DNA of 64,000 nt from Candidatus Marinacidobacterales bacterium. GTDB lineage: Bacteria > Acidobacteriota > Vicinamibacteria > Marinacidobacterales > DATDRI01. The notes below the pieces were generated by a model that worked only from the letters and a program-made list of their open reading frames with translations, was not told the DNA's origin and did no database searches. The stretch covers positions 4,800,001-4,864,000 of the forward strand of contig OZ245365.1 of NCBI GenBank assembly GCA_965226495.1, written 5' to 3'. This document shows positions 2-59,861 of the stretch, piece by piece. Numbering within the stretch: position 1 is the stretch's first letter; each line of letters opens with the position of its first letter. Made by a program: the position numbers and the translations under genes.

Positions 2-244
2 CGAGTCATCGTCGCTGGCCTCGACCAAGACTACCTAGGCAAGCCCTTCGAACCGATCCCACAGTTACTCGCCATTGCGGAATACATCACCAAGACCTTG
101 GCCATCTGCATGCGTTGCGGAAACCCTGCGAATCACACCCAGCGACTCGTCACGTCTCACGAGAGAGTCGTGGTCGGCGGCTCGGAGGCCTACGAAGCGC
201 GCTGTAGACGGTGCTTCGAGCCCGGCCCGGCGAGCGACAACTGA
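2..244 (+). CDS. tdk: Thymidine kinase, C-terminal part (5' truncated by window edge)
   Basis: Manual translation of frame 2: [18 protein letters not shown]...AICMRCG...[15 protein letters not shown]. Contains the GLD-x-D motif and the zinc-binding CxxC pairs of type II thymidine kinases. Confidence 0.93.
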
Positions 245-1308
245 ACCTTTCGCAGCCCTTCCACCCATAGGTTGGCGCCGAGCACTGCAAGGGTAAGCGC
301 CCCACCCGGCACGGCGAGCGTCCACCAGTATCGCGTCATCGAAGTGTAGTTCGAGGCCGCGGATGCCAACATGTTTCCCCAACTCGCATTCGGCTCTTGC
401 ACTCCAAGGCCTAAGAACGAAAGCGTCGCCTCACCCAAAAGGAAATACGGTAGCGTGAGCCCCACCTGCAACAGCAACAGAGGAAGCGTATTCGGAAGGA
501 TGTGCCGGAAGAAGAGTCGACTCCGGCCGGCCCCAGCGGCGACCGCGGACGTGGCAAATTCGCGCTCTCGCAGCGACAAAACGTGCCCTCGCACAAGTCG
601 TGAAACACCGCACCAGCCCACGAGCGCCAACGACCCAACCAGAATCAAGGCTGCCCAACCCGGGGCCAGGTCGTCAGGAAAGACGTTTCGGACCGCGAGA
701 ATCAGATAAAGCGCCGGGAGAGCCATGAAGAGCTCCGTCGACCGCATCAACCATCGATCCCAGACTCCTCCGCCAATAGCCGCCGCGGCTCCCACCAGAG
801 CGCCCAAGGTCACAGTGAGCAGAACGCCTAAGATCGCGGCGGTCGCACTAACCCTGGCACCATGGAGCACCCTCGACAGTAGGTCTCTTCCCAGAGCGTC
901 GGTACCCAGGAGATGGGCTCGGCAACCCTGAAATCCGAACAAATGAGTGGACCCATTCTCGTCCGCCACCAGCCAGCGAACCGAGCAGCCTGCGCTCGGA
1001 AGCGAAGGCGGATGGTGGAAGCTCTCCCGATCCTGGGATCGCGGGCTGTAGGGTGCCAAGAAGGAAGCCCCGAGTCCGGCGACCGCGATGACCGAAAGCA
1101 GGGCGATCCCGATGCGGGAACCTCTATCAATGCCGCGGGGCCCCACCCCCACGGCTTGTCCCTTCGCCGGCAAGCGGCTGCAGAACGGCTGAGGGCTCTT
1201 ATTATCAATGCCGCGGGGCCCCACCCCCACGGCTTGTCCCTTCGCCGGCAAGCGGCTGCAGGACGGCTGAGGGCTCTTATTAGCCCACCAACTTGGTTTC
1301 CACAACAT
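190..1308 (-). CDS. Oligopeptide/dipeptide ABC transporter permease (DppC/OppC type); true start uncertain and may lie within the repeats
   Basis: [25 protein letters not shown]-like loop ([11 protein letters not shown]...RHILPN) and LSFLGLG...WGNML motifs. The first ~60 codons are repeat-derived. Confidence 0.9.
1125..1282. repeat. Two tandem 78-bp copies of a dispersed GC-rich hairpin repeat
   Basis: 1125-1202 and 1203-1280 are identical except for one base (cagaacgg vs caggacgg). Confidence 0.95.
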
Positions 1309-1407
1309 TAGTGACTCACTGCGCGCTCACTCCACGTTCGCGCGCTTGCCGCCTCGCTCCTCGCTCGGCGGTCTGTTGTCGGCCCACTCGGGCCGGGCTC
1401 GCTCCCT

Positions 1408-1494
1408 TATCAATGCGGCGGGGTCCCCACCCCCACCGCCGTCCCTTCGCCGGCAAGCGGCTCCGGGACAGCTGATGGCTCCTCGCGCAAGGTG
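1408..1494. repeat. Third copy (variant) of the dispersed hairpin repeat
   Basis: Shares tatcaatg..gggg..ccccacccccac..gtcccttcgccggcaagcggct with copies 1-2. Near-identical to the reverse complement of 49022-49106. Confidence 0.92.
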
Positions 1495-1517
1495 CAGTGC
1501 GCTCCTTGAGCACCCTG

Positions 1518-2489
1518 CTAGCCTTCTTCCATTCTGATTCGTGGGTCGGCGGCGCCGGTCAACAGGTCCGCGATCAGATTGCCGAAGAGGATCAAGACCG
1601 ATGCAAGAACCAACACACCGAGCAGCAAGAACGAATCCCGGGCGAGCAATCCGCCGAATGCGAGCCTCCCCATACCCGGCCATCCGACAATCACCTCGAT
1701 GAGAAATGCGCCGTTCAAGAACCGCGCTAGAGAAGCACCCGCGAATGCGATGAGTGGGACCATTGCCGGCCGAAGACCGTAGCGCACGAGTATCTGGCTT
1801 TCGGTAAGACCACGGGAACGCGCCGCCCTCACGAACTCCGAGGGTAGGACTTCGAGTAAAGCGCCTCTAGCCTGCAGAAAGAAAAGAGGGGACATCGAAA
1901 AACTAAGGAGGAGCGCCGGCAACAGCAGATGCCGAGCATGATCCAACACCCGGCTCGACCATGGGAGCTCGAGAGAGCCGGCCATGGAGCCACCACCGGT
2001 TGGAAGCAAACCGGTGGCGGCGGCAATTCCCAAACCACCCACCGCGAGTACCAAAGTGGGAACCGAGACGGCCCCGAGTGCTAGGCCAGCGAGGATTCGA
2101 TCTAGCGATCGTCCCGGACGAACCATCGCGAGAAGGCCGAGCCCCAAACCGACGAGGGACGAAACGACCAAGGCCGTCAGCACGAGCGCAAGCGTATAGA
2201 GGGCGGCCTCGCCCAGGAGCTCCGCTACTGGACGTTGAAACCGCAGAGAGACGCCCAGGTCGCCGCGGACCGCTCCCGTCAGCCACGACAGGTATTGTTC
2301 ATACCAAGGTTTGTCGAGACCGAAGCGGCTCACTAACGCGTCGACCGTCGAGGGAGGGATCCCTGGATCCAGACGCAAGCGATCGACAAACGCGCCGGGC
2401 GCCAGGTGGAGGAGCAGAAACGAGAAGAAGCTCACCCCGAAGAGCAAGGGAATGGCAGCCAGCAATCTCGTGAGCGCCATACGAGCCAC
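1518..2489 (-). CDS. Oligopeptide/dipeptide ABC transporter permease (DppB/OppB type)
   Basis: FGLDKPWYEQY, GDLGVS, EFVRAARSRGL, IEVIVGWPGMGRL and ADPRIR motifs. Alternative ATG at 2480. Confidence 0.93.
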   Translation of the reverse strand: MARMALTRLLAAIPLLFGVSFFSFLLLHLAPGAFVDRLRLDPGIPPSTVDALVSRFGLDKPWYEQYLSWLTGAVRGDLGVSLRFQRPVAELLGEAALYTLALVLTALVVSSLVGLGLGLLAMVRPGRSLDRILAGLALGAVSVPTLVLAVGGLGIAAATGLLPTGGGSMAGSLELPWSSRVLDHARHLLLPALLLSFSMSPLFFLQARGALLEVLPSEFVRAARSRGLTESQILVRYGLRPAMVPLIAFAGASLARFLNGAFLIEVIVGWPGMGRLAFGGLLARDSFLLLGVLVLASVLILFGNLIADLLTGAADPRIRMEEG

Positions 2490-2569: not shown

Positions 2570-5080
2570 TTATCCCACGCGGCGATCGGTCTTGTCCTCG
2601 GCTCCGAAGAGGCTGGGCTGATGTGCGGTGCGATCGGACTCCTCCGGTCTCCGGCGACGCATCTTTCGACGACTCTTTTGATCGTACATGTTTCTATCCG
2701 CCGCCATGAGCAGCGACTCGAGATCGTCGCCGTCGGCGGAGAAAGCCGCGAGCCCGAGGGATATGCCAACGCTCAACATCTTTCCGATCCCGACGTCGAT
2801 GTCGGATGTCTCCACGACCTCCTGCAGCCGACGGGAGAACTGAACGGCCTGTTCCATCGTGGTTTTTGGCAAGACAGCAATGAACTCGTCCCCGGCATAG
2901 CGGACCAACACGTCACTGTCTCGCATCTCGGCCTTCAGGATGCGTCCCACTTCTTTGAGGAACCGATCCCCGGCATGATGACCGAAACGGTCGTTGACGC
3001 TCTTGAAGTCGTCCAGGTCCAGCTCGATGACGGTGAGCGGCTCGTCGTAGCGTTTGGCTTCCGAAAGGGTCTGCTCGAAGAAAATGTAGAGGAAGCGCGA
3101 GTTCGCCAGACCGGTCAAGCGATCGGTGAAGGCGTCCTCCTGGGTCTCCTCGAAGCGAATGGCGTTGTAGAGCGCGATCGATGAACGGTTGGCGATGATC
3201 TCCATCAACCGCACATGGTCATGCGAATACCGCTCGTTCCCCGACCAATAGAGCGCGATCGTTCCGAGCGGTCGTTCCTCGTGAACCAACGGAGCCAAGA
3301 TGGAGTTGTGGTAGTTCTTTCGGAACTGCTCAGGAAGAAGCATCACGTCCGGACCTGGGTGCACGTTGTAGAGCATACGGTTGTTGGCGGCCACCCAACC
3401 CGCCAATCGGGTCCCGAACTCGATGGACACCTCCTTGAAGGCGTCTGGGTTTTGCCCGGTGATGTGAGCAGGTGTTAGTACTCCCTGGCCATCGTCCACC
3501 AGATAGATGACGAGCGTGCTAAACGGAATGATCTTCTCGATCTTGGATGCAATGATGGTGAGCGTGTCGGGACGGGACAAGGAGTTGCCAATGGTCTGCA
3601 AGATTTCGAATAGAGCAAATACCTCCCGCTGCGGCTCGGAGATAGAGTCGCTAAAAGCGGGTGCCTGAGGCACGCCCACGATGTCCGGCATCCGTTTCCT
3701 GTCTCGATACTCCTTCGGCGCCGCCATCTCCCGCACCGCCAATGTTCCTAGCTGCTCGTCGAGCTCATCTACGATCTCCAGGAATTTGTTGAAGACCCGG
3801 GGATCGAACCGATGTGCTTCCCGTTTCATGGTCGAGATTGCCGTTTCCCGATCCAGGGAGCGGCGGTAGACTCGGCGGGCGGTGAGCGCCTCGTAACAAT
3901 CGGCAACCGACATGATCCGGGAGCCAAACGGGATCTCTTCGCCTTTGAGCCCGTCCGGGTAACCGCTCCCGTCCCAATTCTCGTGATGATGTTTCACATA
4001 GGGAATGACCGGTACCGGAAAGTCGATAGTGGAGAGGATCTGAGCACCCACCGCTGGGTGCGTACTCATCTTCTGGAACTCCCTTTCCGTCAAACGCGTG
4101 GGTTTGTGAAGGATGTACGACGGGATCGAGATCTTGCCCACATCGTGTAACACGGAGGCGAACCAAAGTCCCTCATAAGTCTTATCGTCGACACCCAACG
4201 CGCGCGCCAATGCCAGTGTCAGCAAACGGGTGCGCTGAATATGTGTACTGGTGTGATGCTTGTAGTCAGTATGGAGCTCTAGCGCGTCGATCGAGAGCGC
4301 GAAGGCCTCCGCGGTCTGATAGTAGAGCTGGGTCAGGTCCTCGTACTTCTCGTTGTAGAAATGATGGGCGTAGTAAACCACCAGAAGGATAGGGAGACCG
4401 AGCAGGAAAGCCCAGGGCCCGGCTACTTGATGGAAAAAGAAGATGACGGCTGCCCCGGAAGCGGAAGCGAGAAAGTAAAGGGGAACCAAAGGTAGATTCT
4501 GTCGCCACATGGCCCAGAAGCCACCTCGACCGGTTACCGCCATCATGGCGTGCATCGATGCCGAATTGATGAGGAAGTAGGTTCCAGCCAACAAGACGAC
4601 CGGAGGAATTATTTGATAGGCGCTTGTCAATTCCGGAGGCACGAAGGCGTAATACACATGACCATAGACGAAGGCGAAGATGCCACCTGATGCAGTATTG
4701 AAGATGGCTTGACTGCTCTTCCAGCCTAGGCTCTTGGATCGATGTACCAGCTGCTTCTTCTTGGTCGTGAACCAGTAACCGACCAAGTGAAAGAGGCCGT
4801 TCGCGACGACCCCCGGCGCCACTCCGTAGATCAGGGTGACGGAGAGAATCAAACAGTCGGCGACGGCCATCCAGGTGTTGGTGCGGGGGATTCGAACGAC
4901 CCATTTGGAGCTGAGCGAAGCGACGGCGGTCAGGGCGGCGAGGGATATCCAGTCCTGCCAAGTGTAAACTTGCCGGAGTTGGATGAGATTATGGACGGCC
5001 CAGACGAAAATAGGGACCGCCGCGGCGACGGATGCCGCAATATAAAGTTTGACTCTGGCTGGCCGATTTTGCCAGTCCAA
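2570..5080 (-). CDS. Multi-pass membrane sensor with HD-GYP, GAF and GGDEF domains (c-di-GMP metabolism)
   Basis: Hydrophobic N-terminal ~240 aa. LHDVGKI and HHENWDGSGYPDGL (HD-GYP), a GAF-like segment, then TDRLTGLAN, DLDDFKSVND and RDSD..RYAGDEF (GGDEF variant with RxxD). Confidence 0.92.
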   Translation of the reverse strand: MDWQNRPARVKLYIAASVAAAVPIFVWAVHNLIQLRQVYTWQDWISLAALTAVASLSSKWVVRIPRTNTWMAVADCLILSVTLIYGVAPGVVANGLFHLVGYWFTTKKKQLVHRSKSLGWKSSQAIFNTASGGIFAFVYGHVYYAFVPPELTSAYQIIPPVVLLAGTYFLINSASMHAMMAVTGRGGFWAMWRQNLPLVPLYFLASASGAAVIFFFHQVAGPWAFLLGLPILLVVYYAHHFYNEKYEDLTQLYYQTAEAFALSIDALELHTDYKHHTSTHIQRTRLLTLALARALGVDDKTYEGLWFASVLHDVGKISIPSYILHKPTRLTEREFQKMSTHPAVGAQILSTIDFPVPVIPYVKHHHENWDGSGYPDGLKGEEIPFGSRIMSVADCYEALTARRVYRRSLDRETAISTMKREAHRFDPRVFNKFLEIVDELDEQLGTLAVREMAAPKEYRDRKRMPDIVGVPQAPAFSDSISEPQREVFALFEILQTIGNSLSRPDTLTIIASKIEKIIPFSTLVIYLVDDGQGVLTPAHITGQNPDAFKEVSIEFGTRLAGWVAANNRMLYNVHPGPDVMLLPEQFRKNYHNSILAPLVHEERPLGTIALYWSGNERYSHDHVRLMEIIANRSSIALYNAIRFEETQEDAFTDRLTGLANSRFLYIFFEQTLSEAKRYDEPLTVIELDLDDFKSVNDRFGHHAGDRFLKEVGRILKAEMRDSDVLVRYAGDEFIAVLPKTTMEQAVQFSRRLQEVVETSDIDVGIGKMLSVGISLGLAAFSADGDDLESLLMAADRNMYDQKSRRKMRRRRPEESDRTAHQPSLFGAEDKTDRRVG

Positions 5081-5220: not shown

Positions 5221-5250
5221 ATAGTAGCACAGCGGTACTGTGCCGGTCAA
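5221..5250 (-). promoter_or_regulatory. Sigma70-like promoter for the HD-GYP/GGDEF gene, with a dyad in the spacer
   Basis: Minus strand TTGACC-N18-TACTAT with an extended TG. The spacer contains GCACAG-N5-CTGTGC. Confidence 0.55.
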
Positions 5251-5273: not shown

Positions 5274-5297
5274 GGAGGCCGCCGGGGGGCGGCCTCC
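5274..5297. terminator. Perfect 10-bp GC hairpin downstream of the micropeptide ORFs (terminator or stabilising stem)
   Basis: ggaggccgcc-gggg-ggcggcctcc. No strong U-tract follows. Confidence 0.5.
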
Positions 5298-5344: not shown

Positions 5345-5371
5345 CTAGACCCAAAGGATTCCGCGATTCAT
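5345..5371 (-). CDS. Micropeptide MNRGILWV (8 aa)
   Basis: atg aat cgc gga atc ctt tgg gtc tag. Paralog of 5582-5608 with synonymous differences. Weak RBS. Confidence 0.55.
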   Translation of the reverse strand: MNRGILWV

Positions 5372-5416: not shown

Positions 5417-5512
5417 TTAGTTCCAAATCATCCCAGCAGCAGGAGCGGTCCGCTCTTCGAGCTCTTCCACGGTTAGTTCAACGATTTCGATGTTGTCGTT
5501 TTGAGTTTCCAT
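5417..5512 (-). CDS. 31-aa leader/core-type peptide METQNDNIEIVELTVEELEERTAPAAGMIWN
   Basis: Purine-rich RBS gaaagaaaggga upstream of ATG and a double stop TAA TAG. Acidic leader-like N-terminus and a GMIWN C-terminus matching the flanking micropeptides. Confidence 0.75.
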   Translation of the reverse strand: METQNDNIEIVELTVEELEERTAPAAGMIWN

Positions 5513-5581
5513 TGTTAGTCCCTTTCTTTCAATTAGTTGCGCCAGATTTAACTGAAAATCAAGAAATAAGCAATTTGAAAA

Positions 5582-5608
5582 CTAAACCCACAAAATTCCC
5601 TTGGTCAT
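5582..5608 (-). CDS. Micropeptide MTKGILWV (8 aa)
   Basis: GGAGGTGA-ccg-atg acc aag gga att ttg tgg gtt tag. Textbook Shine-Dalgarno. Paralog of 5345-5371. Confidence 0.7.
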   Translation of the reverse strand: MTKGILWV

Positions 5609-6035
5609 CGGTCACCTCCGTGAGATGCCCGACCTGGAAGGACACGCCGACCGGGCCGGGGATTGGGAAGGAAGCCCCCCTTGGAGGGATCTTCGCTCCC
5701 GGACTGAAAGGTTGAGTTGTTAAGAGGAGTGGTTCGGGTAAGCCAGCGGAAGGGGACTTGTTGGAACTGTCATGAATTCAAATAAAGGTCTTTGAATAAC
5801 TCAAGAACCCTTGGTGCAGCCCCTTTAGACCCACCGAAATTACCTACAAACCCTGCCTCTCGACCTCACCTCCTTGGACACTTAACCCACCGAACTTACA
5901 ACTCGAAACGTCTGCTATTTCTTGGACTTTTACTCTACGGTGGGAAAATACTCCGAGCACACCCGACAGTCAGTGACCGGGATCACCAAAGAGAAAATAT
6001 GGGATTTTCCCCCCGTTTTTCGGTTGTACCCTAAA

Positions 6036-7775
6036 TCACCTTATTAAGTAAAGTGCTTCGCTGTTCCAGAGGGTAGGGTGCCAGAAGGGCGTCGGCTCGA
6101 GGTTCCCGAGCCGGACGGTGGTACCCACCAAGGCGTGCGGCACGACCAGATCGATGACGGGGAGCTCTTCGACCACCAAGGCCTGCAGCTCGTCGATCAA
6201 TCCTTTGCGAGCTTCGTATTCGACCGCCATCATCTGCTGCTCCATCAGCTCGTCCAATCGCGCTTCCCATACAGAGGCGGGTTGCGACTGAGAGGGATGC
6301 CATACGTGCAAGGGCGAATGGCTGAGCCAAAGAGGCCTCTGCGTGGACGGATCGGGATCGGTAAAGCTAATCCCGAAGAGGCATGCCTGGTAGTCGAATG
6401 TACGCGTGATTCGGCTTATTAGGGTGGCGAAATCGAGCGAAACGAGGCTCATTTCGACCCCGATCCGCGCGAGGTCTTCTTGGATGAGCGTGGCCGTCTT
6501 CACGCGGGAGGGGTTGTTGGCGTTGGTGAGGAGCGTGAACCGCACGCGTTCTCCCCTTGGACCCACAAGCACTTCTCTCTCCTCGGTGAAGCCGGCCTGC
6601 GCCAGCAGTTCTCGAGCACGCTGCGGATCGTAGGGCGGAGGAGCGATAGACTCGTTCCACCACCGTCGGTTTGCCGAGGTGATGGGGCCGGCCGCCGGAG
6701 AAGCCAAACCCGCGTAGACGGCCTTCACGATGGATTGCCGGTCGATGGCCAGGGAAATGGCCCTTCGGAAGCGTCGATCGGTGAACCACGCTCGTTGCTC
6801 GGGCGACACCGAGCTCTCCGGGTTGAGATTGAACCAGATGCGCTCGGGAGTCGTCCCAGGGCCCAGATCGATGAGGCGCCGATCCGGAGCATCCTTCTCC
6901 CTGAAGCTGATGAAGTCCTCCGGCGGCAAGGGACTCAGAAGGTCGAGCTCCCCAGAGCCGAAGCGAAGCGCCAGAGCGTTCGCATCGGATAGGATTTCGA
7001 AAGTGATTCCGTCCAAATAAGGAAGCTGCTCTCCGTCCGGTCCGTACTTCCAGTAGTTGGGGTTGCGGCGGAGAACCACTCTCTGGCCAGGCACATACCG
7101 CTCGAGGACGAACGGGCCTAGACCTACGATCCCCTCAGAAACCCCGATTCCGTATTCGGATGCGAAGCTCCCATCCTCGAGCGAGGCTTGGAGCCTATGT
7201 CGAGGCAGGACCGGAATGCTATCGAAGATCCTCTCCACCACCGCGGTACGACGGGGTAGTCGGAACCGAACTGTTAACGGATCGACGACCTCTGGAACCA
7301 GAGGCTTCCCTTCGACCATCGCCGTTTCGACGAGCGGACTCGCCACTGCAGGATCATGCAAAGCCTGAAATGTGAACGCGACATCTGCAGCGGTCAGAGG
7401 CGTGCCATCTGAAAAACGGACATCGGGCCGGAGCTTGAAAGTCAGCTCCCGACTGTCCTCAGAGAAGGACCACGATTCGGCGAGCTCGGGCTCGAGCTCC
7501 TGCGTCAGCCGATTGACCCTTAGCAGAGCGGCGTGCAGACGCTCGGTAATTTGGTGGCTCACTTCATCGGTCGCAAGAAGTCGGTTCCAAGTCTGCGGCT
7601 CGCTGCGAATCCCCACTCGCAGCATGCCGCCGGCGACCGGGGTGCCGGGGATGGACGAATCCCCTTGGACCGCCTCCTCCTCCGTCAAACGGCACTGAGG
7701 GGCGATGAAGAGCGCCATGGTGGCGAGCGCAAGGGGCAAGGTAGATGCGCGTGACATCCACGTCATTGGGCCCAA
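6036..7775 (-). CDS. ABC transporter substrate-binding protein, family 5 (peptide/nickel type)
   Basis: N-terminal signal/lipoprotein-like segment. PELAESWSFS..TFKLRPDVRFSDGTPLTAADVAFTF, GLGPF and FRRAISLAIDR motifs. Confidence 0.93.
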   Translation of the reverse strand: MGPMTWMSRASTLPLALATMALFIAPQCRLTEEEAVQGDSSIPGTPVAGGMLRVGIRSEPQTWNRLLATDEVSHQITERLHAALLRVNRLTQELEPELAESWSFSEDSRELTFKLRPDVRFSDGTPLTAADVAFTFQALHDPAVASPLVETAMVEGKPLVPEVVDPLTVRFRLPRRTAVVERIFDSIPVLPRHRLQASLEDGSFASEYGIGVSEGIVGLGPFVLERYVPGQRVVLRRNPNYWKYGPDGEQLPYLDGITFEILSDANALALRFGSGELDLLSPLPPEDFISFREKDAPDRRLIDLGPGTTPERIWFNLNPESSVSPEQRAWFTDRRFRRAISLAIDRQSIVKAVYAGLASPAAGPITSANRRWWNESIAPPPYDPQRARELLAQAGFTEEREVLVGPRGERVRFTLLTNANNPSRVKTATLIQEDLARIGVEMSLVSLDFATLISRITRTFDYQACLFGISFTDPDPSTQRPLWLSHSPLHVWHPSQSQPASVWEARLDELMEQQMMAVEYEARKGLIDELQALVVEELPVIDLVVPHALVGTTVRLGNLEPTPFWHPTLWNSEALYLIR

Positions 7776-23492: not shown

Positions 23493-26075
23493 ATGATCCG
23501 GCGATTCAAGTCACGGCTCCAAGGTAGTAGCGAAGTCTCCGCGGACGGGGAGACGCGCACGGAAACGCTTCATCGCTTCCAAGCCACCTTCTCTCTCGTC
23601 TACTGGCTGGTGACGCTTCTCGTACTCGCGTACGCTTTTTCTCTGGCTCGAATCGGCGACCGCCCCCTACTCATCGGGCTCGCACTGATGGCGGCCACAG
23701 TCAATTTCATTTTCCTTCACTTCCGGCCTCAGCGGTTCTCGCTCTCTCACGGAGCTCTGGCGATGGTCGTCGTCACGTCGGTCTTTGCCCTGCTCCTCGT
23801 CTATTGGACCGGCCCGCTCGATTCCCCCTTCTTCGCCGCCATCCTGCTCCTGGTTCTCACCGCGTCCCTCGTCCTCAGCCGGGTTGCTGCGGTGGCAGTG
23901 GTCTCCGGAATCTCCTTGGCATTCCTCGGCATCGTCGCCCTGGCGAGCCAGCTAGGCACCCCGTCTTCCCTTCTCACCGCGGGGGTCCAACTCGCCACGC
24001 TCTGGGTGATGGCGTACGTAGGAGGTTTCTTGTCCCAAGAGCTCACACTCAGGGACGGTGAGCTCAGCCAGTGGGAGCTCGAGCAGCGCGTCCGGGACGC
24101 CAGTCAAGGGGCGAGGGACGTGTTCGCCGGAACGATCAACGACCTCAAGAACGCGTTGGATGAGGTGCTAGAGCGTGCAACCTTTGCCCTGCGCATACCC
24201 GCCGCCGGAATCTTCCTCCTCGATGAGGAAAAACGGGGCCTGATCTTGACCAGTTACACGGGCCTACCCAGCGATCTCGCCGAGCTCGTTGCCGTGCAGC
24301 GGCTCACCGAGCCGGGTGCAGGATTGGCAAGTCGAGCCGCCCTGCAACGTAAGCCCTTCGTCTTGGACGATCTCATCACCGACCCTCTCGTGGAGGAGTT
24401 CCGCGAGGCGATCCTTCTTTCCGGGTGGCGCTCGACCGCTTGTTTACCCATGGTATCGAGGGGAAGAATTGTCGGGGTCCTCCAGCTCTTCGCCGACGAG
24501 ATGGGCTTCTTCAGAGAGTCACGTCTGAACGCATTGGGAGCTCTGACGAATGAGCTCGGTCTGACCATCGAGAACGTCTCGCTCGCCGAAGAAGAGAAGA
24601 AGCGGCGAACCGAGCTCGCCGCGCTCCACGGCGCGGCCAAGACCATGACCTCCACCCACACTCTCGACGAGGCCGTACATAGTGCCATCGACGCCATCGA
24701 CCGTCTCGGGTTCCCTCATGCTAAGGTCCTGCTGCTCGACGAGCGCCGACGCCACCTCGTGCCACAACCTTCCGTGCCCGGAGCGGCAGCGGAAGCGATG
24801 GCACCAACCCCGCTCGGCAAGGGCGCGGCGGGACAGGCGGCTCAAACTGGGGAGGTCGTACTGATTCCGGACACGGCAGAATTACCGCTCGCTGACGGAG
24901 ACCACGAAGGAGCCCGCTCCCAGATCGCGGTTCCCCTCAAGGTAAAGAGGAATCTCATCGGAGTGCTGGACATCGGGCACGAACAACCCAATGCTTTCGG
25001 TGACAAAGACATCCGCATCCTGACTTCGTTTGCCAATCAAGCCGCCATCGCCATCGACAACGCACGGCTCTACCAAGCGGAGAAGACACGGACCGAACAT
25101 CTGGGTGCCTGGCGCGATTACTCGGCGCGGATACAAACGGCTCAAACAGAATCGGAAGTTCTTGCGGCGCTCCTTCATTATCTGGACCGACTCGTAGCAC
25201 CCAACCAGTCGGTCGTGTACCGACCGATTCCAGAAGACAACCTCCTCGAGGTCACCCAGCACGTGGGTTTGCCCGGCCGGTGCGGGCACGACTCCCGCTT
25301 CGATGCGGCGAGCTGCATCGCCTATCGGACCGGCAAAGCATTTCGCTACGACGGCGCGAAAGAGCTCCCCTGTCCGATAAAATCTTCGACCGAGGGCGGG
25401 GATAGTTACCTCTGTCTTCCCATGGTGGTTGGCGGGTCCACGATCGGAGTCATTCACTTGGACAGTCTCCAAGAGGCTTATTGGAGCGAGGAGCGAACCG
25501 AGCTCGCGCGTGGCTTCGTGGATTACGCCGCACCCATTCTCCAGAACGTCCGTTACTTCAAGCGACTTCAGCAAAGAGCGATTCAGGACGAGCTTACCGG
25601 TCTCTACAACCGGCGTTTCCTGGAAGGACATCTACACAAACAACTTGCGATGGCCTCTCGTTACGAGCAACCGCTCGCGGTTCTCATGCTGGACATCGAC
25701 CTCTTCAAAACGATCAACGACCGCTTTGGACATGATGCGGGCGATCGCGTCCTGCGGAGCTTCTCCGTGAACTTGTCACAGACGATTCGGGCGTCAGACG
25801 TTGTCGCCCGATGGGGCGGAGAGGAGTTTGTGGTCGTCCTACCTTCAACCATCGGCCGCGCCGCCAAAGTACTGGCGGAGAAGATCCGGAGATCAATCGA
25901 AGCGCTTTCCTTCGAAGAGCAGGTTCCGGGTCTAGATGGGATAACGGTGAGTATCGGCACCGCCGCCTACCCGGACGACGGCGCAACCGAGGAGCTCTTG
26001 CTGAAGAGCGCGGACCTCGCTCTATACCGTGCCAAGCAACGGGGCCGCAACCGCGTCGAGGCGGCAGCAGTCTAA
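23493..26075 (+). CDS. Membrane diguanylate cyclase with three GAF domains
   Basis: N-terminal TM helices and three GAF-like repeats. DELTGLYNRR, DIDLFKTIND and RASD..RWGGEEF. Confidence 0.93.
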   Translation: MIRRFKSRLQGSSEVSADGETRTETLHRFQATFSLVYWLVTLLVLAYAFSLARIGDRPLLIGLALMAATVNFIFLHFRPQRFSLSHGALAMVVVTSVFALLLVYWTGPLDSPFFAAILLLVLTASLVLSRVAAVAVVSGISLAFLGIVALASQLGTPSSLLTAGVQLATLWVMAYVGGFLSQELTLRDGELSQWELEQRVRDASQGARDVFAGTINDLKNALDEVLERATFALRIPAAGIFLLDEEKRGLILTSYTGLPSDLAELVAVQRLTEPGAGLASRAALQRKPFVLDDLITDPLVEEFREAILLSGWRSTACLPMVSRGRIVGVLQLFADEMGFFRESRLNALGALTNELGLTIENVSLAEEEKKRRTELAALHGAAKTMTSTHTLDEAVHSAIDAIDRLGFPHAKVLLLDERRRHLVPQPSVPGAAAEAMAPTPLGKGAAGQAAQTGEVVLIPDTAELPLADGDHEGARSQIAVPLKVKRNLIGVLDIGHEQPNAFGDKDIRILTSFANQAAIAIDNARLYQAEKTRTEHLGAWRDYSARIQTAQTESEVLAALLHYLDRLVAPNQSVVYRPIPEDNLLEVTQHVGLPGRCGHDSRFDAASCIAYRTGKAFRYDGAKELPCPIKSSTEGGDSYLCLPMVVGGSTIGVIHLDSLQEAYWSEERTELARGFVDYAAPILQNVRYFKRLQQRAIQDELTGLYNRRFLEGHLHKQLAMASRYEQPLAVLMLDIDLFKTINDRFGHDAGDRVLRSFSVNLSQTIRASDVVARWGGEEFVVVLPSTIGRAAKVLAEKIRRSIEALSFEEQVPGLDGITVSIGTAAYPDDGATEELLLKSADLALYRAKQRGRNRVEAAAV

Positions 26076-57731: not shown

Positions 57732-59861
57732 ATGAGATTAGACACAACGCTTCTTCGCAGCAAGGTCGGCAAGAGACTCTTTACTCTGTTCATACTCTGC
57801 TCGCTCGCCCCAATCACGGTGCTCGCCATCATCTCCTTTACTCACGTCACCAAGCAGCTGGACGCGCAGAGCCGGAGCCGATTGCACCAAGCGAGTAAAG
57901 CGCTCGGAATGGCTATTTTCGAGCGATTGGCCTTCCTCGAGGCCGGGATGAAGTCGGCCGCCGCGAACCTCAGGCTCGGCGTGGACATCGGAAAGGGTGA
58001 ACATCCGATCGTCGCGGATCTCGGAGAACGATTCGACGCGCTGGGTCTCTTGTCCGTAGGCGGAGATTATACGCATCTAGTGGGAGACCCCCAACGACTG
58101 CCCGAGCTGGAACCGGAACACGAAGAGCATATGGCTGACGGGCGGACGCTGCTGATCCAACGGCGCGCGGTCGGTGTCCTTCCGCGGTTCATGATGATCC
58201 GTATGGTGGACGATGGAGATCCCTCGCGGGGCCTCTTACTAGGAGAGCTGAACACCAGATACCTGTGGGGCGGCGAGTCGACCCTTCCACCGCTCACGGA
58301 TCTTTGCATTCTCAGTGATGTCGACACCATTCTCTTCTGCTCGGGTGAGGTACCGATCTCCGAGAACGTAGGCTGGAAGCTTCGCGAGTCGGCCTCTGGA
58401 CATTTCGAGTGGAGCGGAGAAGGAGAGACTTTCTTGGCGGGGTATTGGTCGATACCTCTTTTCGGCTTCTCGGCGGCACAGTGGACGGTGATCTTGAGCG
58501 AGTCCATTGAAAGTGTCCACGCGCCAATGGCCGATTTCAGAAAGACGTTCCCCCTCGTCATTCTCATGTCCTTGTGGGTCGTCCTCCTCTTGAGCATCAA
58601 TCAAATACGTCGGAGTCTCGTCCCGCTCGAGAACCTTCAGGAGGGAACGCGACGAATCGCAGAAAAAGATTTCGATAGTCGAGTAAGCGTCGACAGTGGG
58701 GACGAGTTCCAGGAGCTCGCCGAATCCTTTAACGGCATGGCGGGTGAATTGGGCAGACAGTTTCACACTCTTGCCACCATGTCCGAGATCGATCGGGCCA
58801 TTCTTTCTGTTTTCGACACCCAGCAAATCGTAAACACACTACTCACAAGAATGCCCGACGTGCTCCCCTGTCGATCAGTCAGTTTGACGATCATTGACAC
58901 CAAGGGTAGCAACCGAGCCGAGACCTATTCGAAAAGCTGCGACCCGGAGGGTGAAACGGTAGTCGAGACCGTCGAGCTCGACCGCAGAGAGCTGGGAGAT
59001 CTTCGAGACAACCCGGAAAGCCTTTGGATCCGAGGAACTCCCCCACCACACTACATCCCTCCTTCGATGCGGCTGCGCGCCGAGTCCTGGCAGGTCTTTC
59101 CGATCTTCTTCAAGGAGCGACTGGCGGGGATCATAACCCTAGGCGATGCGGATGCTACCGCGCATGGTCAAGAGGATTTGCGCCGGGCGCGACAGTTGGT
59201 GGACCAGGTTGCGGTAGCCCTCTCGAACGCTCACCTAGTCGAGCAGCTGGACGAGCTCAACTGGGGAGCGCTCATCGCCCTCGCCCGTACCATCGACGCG
59301 AAATCTCCTTGGACCCTGGGGCACTCCGAGCGGGCGGCTGAAATAGCCATGAAGATTGGCCGGGTTCTGGGCCTAGGTCAGAAAGACCTGGACGACCTAC
59401 ATCGCGGAGCGTTGCTCCACGACATCGGCAAAATCGGAATTCCTCCCACCATCCTGGACAAGCCCGGGAAACTAACTCCCGATGAAATCGAGGTCATGCG
59501 GGAACATCCCCTGATCGGCGAGCGCATCCTCGAACCTATCGCCGCCTATGCCGACGTGATCCCGGTCGTCTCGCAACACCACGAATGGTTCGACGGATCG
59601 GGTTATCCGCGCGGCCTGTCGGGCAACGGGATTCGCTTCATCGCCCGCATCTATGCGGTGGCGGACGTCTTCGACGCCTTGATTGCGGATCGCCCCTACC
59701 GAGCCGGCTTGAGCCTCGAGACGGTGACCGATTACATCAAGGAGAGATCGGGGCGCCAGTTCGACCCCGAGGTCGTCGCCGCCTTCTTAGAGGTTGTGGC
59801 GAACGGCTACCCGAGTGCCAAGGAAGAGGAAGCCGAGCCCAGCTCCGTCACCCAGGCCTAG
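57732..59861 (+). CDS. Membrane sensor HD-GYP phosphodiesterase (periplasmic domain-HAMP-GAF-HD-GYP)
   Basis: Two TM helices, HAMP (DEFQELAESFN), GHSER, LHDIGK, HHEWFDGSGYP and DVFDAL..RPYR. Confidence 0.93.
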   Translation: MRLDTTLLRSKVGKRLFTLFILCSLAPITVLAIISFTHVTKQLDAQSRSRLHQASKALGMAIFERLAFLEAGMKSAAANLRLGVDIGKGEHPIVADLGERFDALGLLSVGGDYTHLVGDPQRLPELEPEHEEHMADGRTLLIQRRAVGVLPRFMMIRMVDDGDPSRGLLLGELNTRYLWGGESTLPPLTDLCILSDVDTILFCSGEVPISENVGWKLRESASGHFEWSGEGETFLAGYWSIPLFGFSAAQWTVILSESIESVHAPMADFRKTFPLVILMSLWVVLLLSINQIRRSLVPLENLQEGTRRIAEKDFDSRVSVDSGDEFQELAESFNGMAGELGRQFHTLATMSEIDRAILSVFDTQQIVNTLLTRMPDVLPCRSVSLTIIDTKGSNRAETYSKSCDPEGETVVETVELDRRELGDLRDNPESLWIRGTPPPHYIPPSMRLRAESWQVFPIFFKERLAGIITLGDADATAHGQEDLRRARQLVDQVAVALSNAHLVEQLDELNWGALIALARTIDAKSPWTLGHSERAAEIAMKIGRVLGLGQKDLDDLHRGALLHDIGKIGIPPTILDKPGKLTPDEIEVMREHPLIGERILEPIAAYADVIPVVSQHHEWFDGSGYPRGLSGNGIRFIARIYAVADVFDALIADRPYRAGLSLETVTDYIKERSGRQFDPEVVAAFLEVVANGYPSAKEEEAEPSSVTQA

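Follow-up and report, generated by a model that had tools for sequence, protein, structure and literature searches.

The 64,000-nucleotide stretch analysed here as a whole (hereafter the window), from Candidatus Marinacidobacterales bacterium, contains a 955-nt spacer between two minus-strand genes, and within it a short open reading frame (ORF) that is considered below as the possible precursor of a peptide signal. The upstream gene (6036..7775) encodes a 579-aa solute-binding protein (SBP) of family SBP_bac_5 with a signal peptide, and the downstream gene (2570..5080) an 836-aa protein, hereafter the sensor, composed of about 240 aa of hydrophobic segments and HD-GYP (HD_5), GAF and GGDEF domains. 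The frame between them runs on the minus strand from the ATG at 5512 to position 5417; its 31 codons specify METQNDNIEIVELTVEELEERTAPAAGMIWN, and its TAA stop (5419..5417) is directly followed by TAG. A purine-rich ribosome-binding region, GAAAGAAAGGGA, is found on the same strand at 5530..5519 and ends 6 nt before the ATG. A preliminary description of this DNA had reported a 31-aa ORF with such a ribosome-binding site and tandem stops and had placed it between two octapeptide genes. Both points were confirmed, the flanking frames being mini-ORF 1 (MTKGILWV, 5608..5582) and mini-ORF 2 (MNRGILWV, 5371..5345), both on the minus strand.

Seventeen ORFs of at least 20 aa overlap the spacer, so that a 31-codon frame by itself says little, and neither Pfam nor NCBIfam holds a family for the peptide; both points would suit a chance ORF in a long spacer. 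The source genome (G000; 6.34 Mb; contig C1) was therefore considered within a sample of 55 genomes of its order, which, G000 excluded, fall into families f1 (n = 7), f2 (n = 19) and f3 (n = 28). Conservation in relatives, proposed as a check in the preliminary description, was found: a hidden Markov model of the peptide retrieved homologues in 20 of the 55 genomes, a count that takes in G000, a frameshifted remnant in G003 and an unpublished genome, G007. By family, with G000 left out, homologues were present in 5/7 genomes of f1, 14/19 of f2 and 0/28 of f3. In a class-wide sample of 301 genomes, 21 matched; two of these matches, both weak, fell outside f1 and f2. When 223 pattern matches were compared with the precursor alignment, four were confirmed; tblastn is weak on 30 residues.

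Over 17 leader codons in 19 copies, mean column entropy for the first, second and third codon position was 0.54, 0.35 and 1.21, respectively. Arginine was encoded in these copies by CGC, CGG, CGA, CGT or AGG, and proline by all four of its codons. This third-position variation indicates that selection acts on the protein. When the spacer was compared at the DNA level with 41 related genomes, only positions 536–599 of the query, corresponding to codons 9–24, survived between families, and ORFs translated at the matching places were small, with the same leader and different ends. Start codons were ATG, with GTG or TTG in two cases, and an AAGGAG-like site was found 6–8 nt ahead of them in relatives. 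The leader motif occurs only once in the whole 6.34-Mb genome. No known RNA family was recognized in the spacer by an Rfam scan, which returned only asX1, on the opposite strand and with 23.3 bits against a gathering score of 70. Combined, these sequence comparisons show that the 31-codon ORF is a real, conserved gene, evidently translated and under purifying selection. Its conservation in 20/55 genomes, its third-position variation and the retention of start, ribosome-binding site and stop leave a negligible probability for a chance ORF. Two of the copies have peculiarities of their own. In G002 (L046:7793-10405) a foreign-looking insert of about 1.7 kb separates the precursor gene from the second mini-ORF, and the precursor carries a 1-nt deletion; in G003 the SBP gene is truncated, and the core of the peptide resembles that of G007.

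Alignment of the homologues revealed three parts in the peptide. Residues 1–8 are variable, with ME, MD or MN followed by polar residues. Residues 9–24 (EIVELTVEELEERTAP; 5441..5488, minus strand) constitute the invariant part of a leader with the consensus E-[IV]-[VE]-E-L-x-[VI]-E-E-L-E-E-R-x-[AS]-P, in which L13, E16, E17, L18, E19, R21 and P24 are invariant among 17 sequences. Residues 25–31 (AAGMIWN; 5420..5440, minus strand) form the core, the proposed mature peptide. The claim of a leader-core precursor with a boundary after ..RTAP was borne out, since invariance stops at that point, with Pro at −1 in 19/19 copies and Ala (17) or Ser (2) at −2. The core is hypervariable across genera and conserved inside genera. 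It consists of Gly (AAG or Ala in genus g1) and 4–9 mostly beta-branched or aromatic residues, and the cores seen were GIIIGL, GMIVVL, GVIVAF, GIVIVIY, GIIICW, GLVWT, GIVWGG(P), GTIINI, GIIIAV, GLVVVL, GLVVVWIPYP, GVIINFGHSP, ALIFNG and AAGMIWN. GIIIGL is identical in four g14 genomes, which differ only by synonymous GGT/GGC and CTA/CTT/CTG codons, and GVIVAF is identical in two g13 genomes, which differ only by GCT/GCC. Such synonymous-only change within genera indicates that the core too is under selection, yet re-set between genera in a pherotype-like manner. [quoted passage not shown]

Other elements of the preliminary description did not withstand the family alignment. It had pointed to a double-glycine leader, which would be cut by a C39 exporter, and to a ComX-like pheromone with a modified near-terminal Trp. 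The consensus of double-glycine leaders is L-x-x-x-E-L, and substrates of peptidase-containing ATP-binding transporters (PCATs) carry Gly-Gly or Gly-Ala/Ser at −2/−1. The present leader resembles these in being short and acidic, with an L-x-x-E-E-L stretch (L-T-V-E-E-L-E-E) followed by a C-terminal core. A single C39 domain is encoded in the genome, within an open frame of 929 aa at G000:C1:3151990, 1.65 Mb from the window, and the nearest named ESM Atlas clusters were lantibiotic (0.77) and ComC (0.75), although such scores often arise by chance. By contrast, positions −2/−1 are Ala or Ser and invariant Pro, never Gly-Gly, and neither a C39 protein nor a prenyltransferase was found in the window scan or in the conserved neighbourhood of 18 loci fetched for gene-order comparison. 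Nothing pointed to ComX-like prenylation: Trp is present in the leadered core of only 5/20 genomes and G-x-x-W in 3/20, so that the Trp motif is local rather than a family trait, and no ComQ-like isoprenyl transferase was seen beside the precursor among the window ORFs scanned, the rest of the genome not having been searched for one. The family alignment thus largely refutes this version, which we consider very improbable. The window scan comprised 42 ORFs of at least 110 aa beyond 14 kb and the four flanking genes, and returned no C39, M50, radical-SAM, S8 or prenyltransferase protein, in agreement with the earlier statement that the window encodes no modifying enzyme or peptidase-exporter; the plus-strand ORFs at 7.9–14.2 kb were read by eye only, as haem-synthesis genes. 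Nor does the peptide locus have a conserved gene for a modifying enzyme, as judged from the neighbourhood of the 18 loci and the window ORFs scanned.

The order SBP_bac_5 gene, precursor, sensor orthologue (56–89% identity) was found in 17 of the 18 loci, the exception being L039, a second, solitary precursor copy in G004. A sensor orthologue was present in 24/55 genomes, namely all 20 with the peptide plus G006, in which it is cut by the contig end at residue 185, and G012, G016 and G018, which hold sensor fragments only. No orthologue was found in the 28 f3 genomes, which also lack the peptide, or in G001, G022 and G040. The linkage of homologues to a similar sensor, by which the preliminary description was to be judged, is therefore general, and peptide and sensor are retained together and decay together, a co-occurrence among kin genomes rather than a statistical test. 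Gene splits are frequent in the error-prone assemblies of the relatives, and the many split genes blur any argument from co-decay.

Both neighbours of the precursor have the features of their families. In the SBP, Cys28 is invariant and the consensus contains an AGC lipobox; its nearest solved relative is the oligopeptide-binding protein AppA of B. subtilis (1xoc). In the translated sensor the motifs HD..HHENWDGSGYP, the RxxD site (RDSD) and AGDEF are intact. An SBP gene adjacent to that of a membrane cyclic di-GMP (c-di-GMP) enzyme with both types of domain is the arrangement of the NspS-MbaA type. NspS-MbaA and PruR-DcpA are described as coupling a periplasmic binding protein to a bifunctional c-di-GMP enzyme (PMC8967002, PMC5646818, PMC11194511). 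The present pair is likewise a solute-binding protein and a membrane protein with cyclase and phosphodiesterase domains. Whereas the ligand described in those sources is a polyamine or a pterin and the enzymes are GGDEF-EAL proteins with a periplasmic domain, here the candidate ligand is a genome-encoded peptide and the enzyme carries HD-GYP, GAF and GGDEF domains behind a compact multi-transmembrane domain. Two minus-strand ABC permease genes follow the sensor, OppB-like (1518..2489) and OppC-like (190..1308), the latter not followed by an ATPase gene. Both were found after the sensor in 12 of the 17 relatives' loci; L052 cannot be judged. This variable presence indicates that the constant core of the system consists of the binding protein, the small ORFs and the c-di-GMP enzyme. 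Between the two permease genes the DNA appears to contain tandem repeats of about 80 nt, since one protein unit recurs in the translations at about 1100..1500 of the window: the OppC-like ORF has two copies of it at its 5′ end, and a further copy is encoded by an ORF at 1316..1513. The plus strand of the window also encodes two further c-di-GMP proteins, GAF-GAF-GGDEF (23493..26075, 860 aa) and HAMP-GAF-HD-GYP (57732..59861, 709 aa).

The mini-ORFs are conserved as well. At least one copy of the frame M-x(1-2)-G-[IV]-[LV]-W-[VIA]-stop, 7–8 codons long, was present in 18/18 SBP-sensor spacers, 340–870 nt past the SBP stop, and the upstream copy ends about 50–110 nt ahead of the precursor start. 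A second copy downstream of the precursor was observed in G000, G002, G004 and G005 (f1), and G003 has no upstream copy, its sole mini-ORF lying downstream. Entropy of the five GILWV codons over 22 copies was 0.49, 0.05 and 1.21 at the three positions, with Leu encoded by TTA, TTG, CTT, CTC or CTA; variants are a lost stop in G034 and GILWA in G026. AGGAGG-like sites at optimal spacing precede 17/17 upstream copies; in the window, GGAGGTG (5619..5613) is located 4 nt upstream of mini-ORF 1, and the ribosome-binding site of mini-ORF 2 is weak. Among 185,579 species, each represented by one genome, 21 stretches fitted the Shine-Dalgarno (SD) plus mini-ORF pattern. A stricter re-scan gave a match in 16 of the 21, and nine of these, all acidobacterial, had a leader peptide at most 330 nt downstream. 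One further match, in Vicinamibacteria, had no leader peptide, and the remaining ones were scattered over unrelated phyla in about the number expected by chance, as estimated. Mini-ORF and core both consist of Gly and hydrophobic residues and are closest in G004 (GIVWI versus GIVWGG), the mini-ORF being nearly unchanging. The mini-ORFs would thus specify a second, leaderless product of like sequence, a candidate ligand or translational regulator, and the earlier portrayal of one locus with leadered and leaderless versions of like peptides is a fair one.

Additional elements surround these frames. A perfect 10-bp GC-rich hairpin (5274..5297, minus strand), 47 nt past mini-ORF 2 and with a weak T-run, is possibly the terminator of the peptide transcript; it is kept at the matching place in G002 with different stem bases, and the promoter/terminator scan did not list the G000 hairpin. 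Upstream of the sensor gene, the minus strand carries a promoter-like TTGACC-18-TACTAT (5221..5250), both hexamers of which are identical in G002. A T-rich word, approximately TTTC[GA]A[TA], directly follows the stop of the upstream mini-ORF in the window (5560..5581) and in 16 relatives. Two copies of ACCCACCGAA(A/C)TTAC, 56 nt apart, are found at 5826..5900, the first kept in G002 and the second not; read on the minus strand they give ..TTCGGTGGGT.., faintly like the end of the mini-ORF, with no open frame. A possible third mini-ORF (MGQKGILWV), which starts with TTG and is preceded at 6 nt by GGAGG, is located on the minus strand at G000:C1:1918867-1918893 (L106:7867-7893); it is flanked by genes for a DDE transposase and a VIT-VWA protein, and no sensor gene is found close by. 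It is retained in G002 with its stop lost (..GILWVLKPF), and about 150 nt upstream of it are 81–84% identical in G002 and G003.

Nascent-peptide control characteristically leaves the residues of very short upstream ORFs conserved, and the 31-codon ORF and the mini-ORFs could accordingly be cis-acting arrest or attenuation frames that tune the downstream sensor, with no peptide function. The optimal AGGAGG sites of the mini-ORFs, the hairpin 47 nt after mini-ORF 2 and, in genera g1 and g14, the ability of the mini-ORF 1 ribosome-binding site to pair with a CATCTC or CTTCC located upstream would fit such a role. However, an SD-sequestering hairpin before mini-ORF 1, considered as a general feature, was rejected, being restricted to g1 and g14, and no conserved structure follows the mini-ORF. 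The sensor apparently has its own promoter past the hairpin, and the solitary precursor copy L039 is located away from any sensor. Moreover, the core stays hydrophobic and is conserved within genera, for which a pure arrest peptide has no need, and the leader motif is common to multi-core precursors (see below). We regard a purely cis-regulatory function as quite improbable.

The leader motif extends beyond the order. When 1.84 billion representative proteins were searched with a profile, 61 matched at E ≤ 0.001, and the 52 that were examined comprised 31 single-unit precursors, 17 multi-unit precursors and 4 other forms. The 17 multi-unit precursors contain 2–4 repeats of ELxVEELEE[VRK]IAPG, 3–6 variable residues and NHNETLV; these repeated leader units suggest that, within a wider family, short variable cores are flanked by the motif on their N-terminal side. 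On public contigs, the multi-unit family was represented by 43 loci (L059–L101) with 2–9 repeats, mostly in Blastocatellia, Bryobacteraceae, Solibacteraceae and Terriglobia, with some in Gemmatimonadales. Their neighbourhoods include an extracytoplasmic function (ECF) sigma factor (15 of the 43 loci), a Ser/Thr kinase with TPR (20) and a TPR protein (21). In 21 of the 43 loci the precursor is adjoined by a fusion of about 870 aa between an M50-like membrane domain and HlyD. This fusion scored 172 bits against NCBIfam NF041824 (daptide biosynthesis intramembrane metalloprotease; cut-off 300) and also matched the YydH/LiaK epipeptide protease family. In Gemmatimonadota, a 55-aa peptide with the leader motif precedes GAF-HlyD, HlyD and a separate M50 protein (186.9 bits against NF041824). 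The peptides of two gemmatimonadotal loci, L056 and L057 (47–55 aa), are basic in their N-terminal part, contain the AIELSVEELEERVAP motif and end in a short polar tail; that of L056 neighbours a BTAD/AAA regulator, GAF-GAF-HlyD, HlyD and an M50 protease, and that of L057 a Crp-type regulator and an adenylate cyclase.

G000 encodes a single homologue of the M50/HlyD fusion, of 843 aa (G000:C1:563063-565591, 4.2 Mb from the precursor), which is our candidate maturase. It scored 205.6 bits on NF041824 (cut-off 300) and 50.1 bits on NF058609 (cut-off 225). No leader-like ORF was found beside this gene in G000 or in 8 other genomes. Its N-terminus comprises a CxxC..CxxC zinc ribbon and then a conserved domain of about 95 residues. 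Folded together with 8 orthologues, residues 76–171 were predicted to form 4 strands and 3 helices, with a predicted local distance difference test (pLDDT) score of 84.5, and the best Foldseek match in the PDB was TbiB1 with its leader (5v1v; TM-score 0.65/0.70, E 4.2e-3). The other matches were also RRE domains, those of PqqD, lasso B1 (6jx3), LynD, TruD, CteB, SuiB and TigE. The predicted fold of residues 76–171 is thus RRE-like. When residues 72–480 of the fusion and the 31-mer were modelled as a complex, the score was 0.63, compared with 0.01 for the best of three controls; the runs agreed in at least 76% of contacts, with a partner pLDDT of at least 58. The predicted contacts involve peptide residues 7–24, RRE residues 98–157 (strand 106–111 against V15–L18) and residues 265–266 and 269, which belong to the invariant HExxH. 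Contact with the putative leader peptidase ends at Pro24, where family conservation ends, so that the proposed boundary after ..RTAP reappears in the model. The model lends support to binding and places the leader on the RRE, with Ala-Pro at HExxH.

Solved counterparts of this arrangement are the RRE-leader complexes of lasso B1 and PqqD type (TbiB1-TbiA, 5v1v), in which, as predicted here, the leader runs along the third strand and the third helix. By contrast to lasso and PqqD systems, there is no PqqD match at the sequence level and no lasso cyclase or other modifying enzyme. In daptides, the leader is reported to be cut off by MpaP, an M50 peptidase of the intramembrane kind that depends on an RRE (10.1101/2023.03.08.531785). 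The G000 protein resembles MpaP and the YydH/LiaK proteases in its matches to NF041824 and NF058609 and in having an RRE-like domain before an HExxH membrane domain. It differs from MpaP by its HlyD fusion and N-terminal zinc ribbon, and the system differs from daptides in the scores below family cut-offs, in a core ending in Asn rather than Thr, and in that no oxidative decarboxylase, class-III aminotransferase or methyltransferase genes were seen at either locus.

The distribution of the fusion in the order is not specific to peptide genomes. It has no orthologue in the 28 f3 genomes, five of which show matches of 25–31% in the HlyD region only. Within f1 and f2, a phylogenetic profile of protease versus peptide was rejected as uninformative, since presence barely discriminates and split genes confound it. 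The suggestion that C39 or RRE proteins co-occurring with the precursor be sought elsewhere in the genome led to the C39 domain 1.65 Mb away and to the RRE-M50-HlyD fusion. Directly after the fusion gene, in G000 and in 6/8 other genomes, is a gene for a pyridoxal phosphate (PLP) enzyme, a PvdN-like Aminotran_5 (class V) protein with the twin-arginine translocation (Tat) signal MERRSFLG (L105:6026-7330; G000:C1:~561028-562329). It was rejected as a specific peptide modifier, its orthologue being present in 51/55 genomes, including 28/28 f3 genomes without the peptide; the two genes may simply be syntenic.

Bacteriocins and RiPPs typically have a conserved leader, a hypervariable, short hydrophobic core and an RRE-protease-HlyD exporter, and the 31-mer may be a small leader-dependent antimicrobial, the SBP and permease serving self-protection or uptake and the c-di-GMP enzyme being a bystander. 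Daptides and TMcins, which are described as membrane-active and matured by intramembrane proteases, offer a precedent (10.1101/2023.03.08.531785; PMC13252029). However, 5–10 residues would make a remarkably small core for a membrane-active toxin, the locus lacks a conserved immunity-type gene, the invariant partners being only a binding protein and a signalling enzyme, and peptide and sensor are lost together. An antimicrobial function therefore appears unlikely. Another explanation is that the 31-mer stays inside the cell uncut, its helical leader binding the cytoplasmic part of the sensor or some other partner and its greasy tail keeping it at the membrane. The 31-mer indeed has no signal peptide, the locus has no exporter, the leader is conserved far beyond the apparent needs of maturation, and linkage to the sensor is strict. 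By contrast, a tail of 5–10 residues is too short to span a membrane, a periplasmic binding protein is always encoded next door, and the leader is predicted to dock on the RRE with Ala-Pro at HExxH. In addition, the same leader occurs in multi-core precursors by M50/HlyD genes, where repeated units make sense only if cut. We consider that the intracellular alternative has a small chance of being correct.

The reading that we favour, to which we assign a probability of about 50%, is that the 31-mer is a precursor of leader-core type from which a short hydrophobic peptide would be released as a signal to a c-di-GMP switch. Leader residues 9–24 would be bound by the RRE of an M50-type intramembrane metalloprotease fused to a HlyD-type periplasmic adaptor. 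The precursor would be cut in the membrane after the invariant Ala-Pro, and the core, here AAGMIWN, would exit the cytoplasm via the HlyD part. Outside, the SBP_bac_5 lipoprotein may capture the peptide of 5–10 residues and present it to the compact multi-transmembrane domain of the HD-GYP/GAF/GGDEF protein; alternatively, the OppBC-like permease may import the peptide to act on the cytoplasmic GAF domain of the sensor. Either route would shift the balance between making and breaking of c-di-GMP. Observed directly were the split into leader and core, the fixed gene order and the leader motif beside relatives' RRE-M50-HlyD genes, whereas the RRE fold and the docking of leader, RRE and active site are predicted, and the cleavage site, export, binding to SBP or sensor and c-di-GMP output are proposed.

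The closest parallel to such a pathway is found in Firmicutes. Streptococcal short hydrophobic peptide (SHP) pheromones are described as the active C-terminal ends of small precursors, which need the membrane metalloprotease Eep and the Opp permease; a C-terminal mini-gene of SHP expressed inside the cell bypasses the permease (PMC3150281). As in SHP/Rgg and enterococcal sex pheromone systems, the precursor is small and its hydrophobic C-terminal 5–10 residues are putatively active (PMC3150281). The likeness extends to an M50-kind membrane zinc metalloprotease as candidate maturase and to an OppA-type binding protein and OppBC-type permeases encoded alongside. The differences are that the host is a diderm acidobacterium, that an acidic, invariant leader of RRE type takes the place of the basic or hydrophobic N-terminus, that RRE and HlyD adaptor form one protein with the protease, and that there are additional leaderless mini-ORFs. 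The partner also differs, being a membrane HD-GYP/GAF/GGDEF enzyme, with no gene for a cytoplasmic RRNPP (TPR) receptor adjacent.

Several observations weigh against the favoured reading. At the locus, the precursor is frameshifted in G002 and G003; the OppB and OppC genes are missing after the sensor in L036, L037, L040 and L050, for which enough sequence is at hand; no ABC ATPase gene is present in the operon or in the neighbourhood of the fetched loci; and the membrane part of the sensor, read by eye, apparently has short loops only, awkward for docking of the SBP. Cleavage of the peptide and its exit from the cell are steps that we infer. With regard to the maturase, its gene is unlinked to the precursor locus, and its orthologue (at least 48% identity) is present in 24/27 genomes of f1 and f2, six of them peptide-free; none was found in G034 or G026, both of which have the peptide, although the internal TAG in the sensor of G034 and the loss of its mini-ORF stop suggest that the system of this genome may be decaying. 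The Foldseek E-values for the proposed RRE domain are weak, none reaching 0.001, and a Pfam search of the segment returned no PqqD domain. The mark used for the complex score was reached by 116/157 solved complexes and 2/215 mismatched pairs, a calibration that holds only roughly because our own alignments were used, and since solved RRE-leader complexes exist, the pass may partly reflect likeness to them. Even so, none of the bacteriocin-like, intracellular, cis-regulatory or ComX/double-glycine explanations accounts for as much as a secreted peptide signal does.

More tentatively, and with considerable doubt, the locus could be a two-peptide module in which a leadered, genus-specific peptide matured via RRE-M50-HlyD and a leaderless M-x-GILWV heptapeptide would both act on one receptor, composed of the SBP and the multi-transmembrane HD-GYP-GGDEF protein, to set c-di-GMP. 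The leader grammar EELEE-x-x-AP|G would then define, for Acidobacteriota and Gemmatimonadota alike, a wider, undescribed single- and multi-core class with links to ECF sigma factors and Ser/Thr kinases. If so, the two peptides might be, for instance, private and common signals, or agonist and antagonist, and few of the conserved protein-coding genes known would be as short as the 7-codon M-x-GILWV gene.

A leader-core peptide signal is of a kind already known; the system itself looks like an undescribed one, in one group of soil Acidobacteria. The family, the leader grammar, the RRE-M50-HlyD machine, the coupling of SBP to HD-GYP/GGDEF and the 7-codon gene were not found in Pfam, NCBIfam or the literature searched, and the motif strings had no match in the literature search, which could not detect sequences given solely in figures or supplements. 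In Gram-positive bacteria, ribosomal peptide signals are textbook matter; in diderms they are rare and disputed. Acidobacteriota are a dominant, hard-to-culture soil phylum, and to our knowledge almost nothing is known of their cell-cell signalling. The locus offers a compact, testable system of one precursor, a binding protein, a c-di-GMP enzyme and a candidate protease-exporter. It further provides a gene of 7 codons that is clearly under selection for its amino acids and is of a length that gene callers never annotate, and a leader motif common to an uncharacterised family of multi-core peptides.

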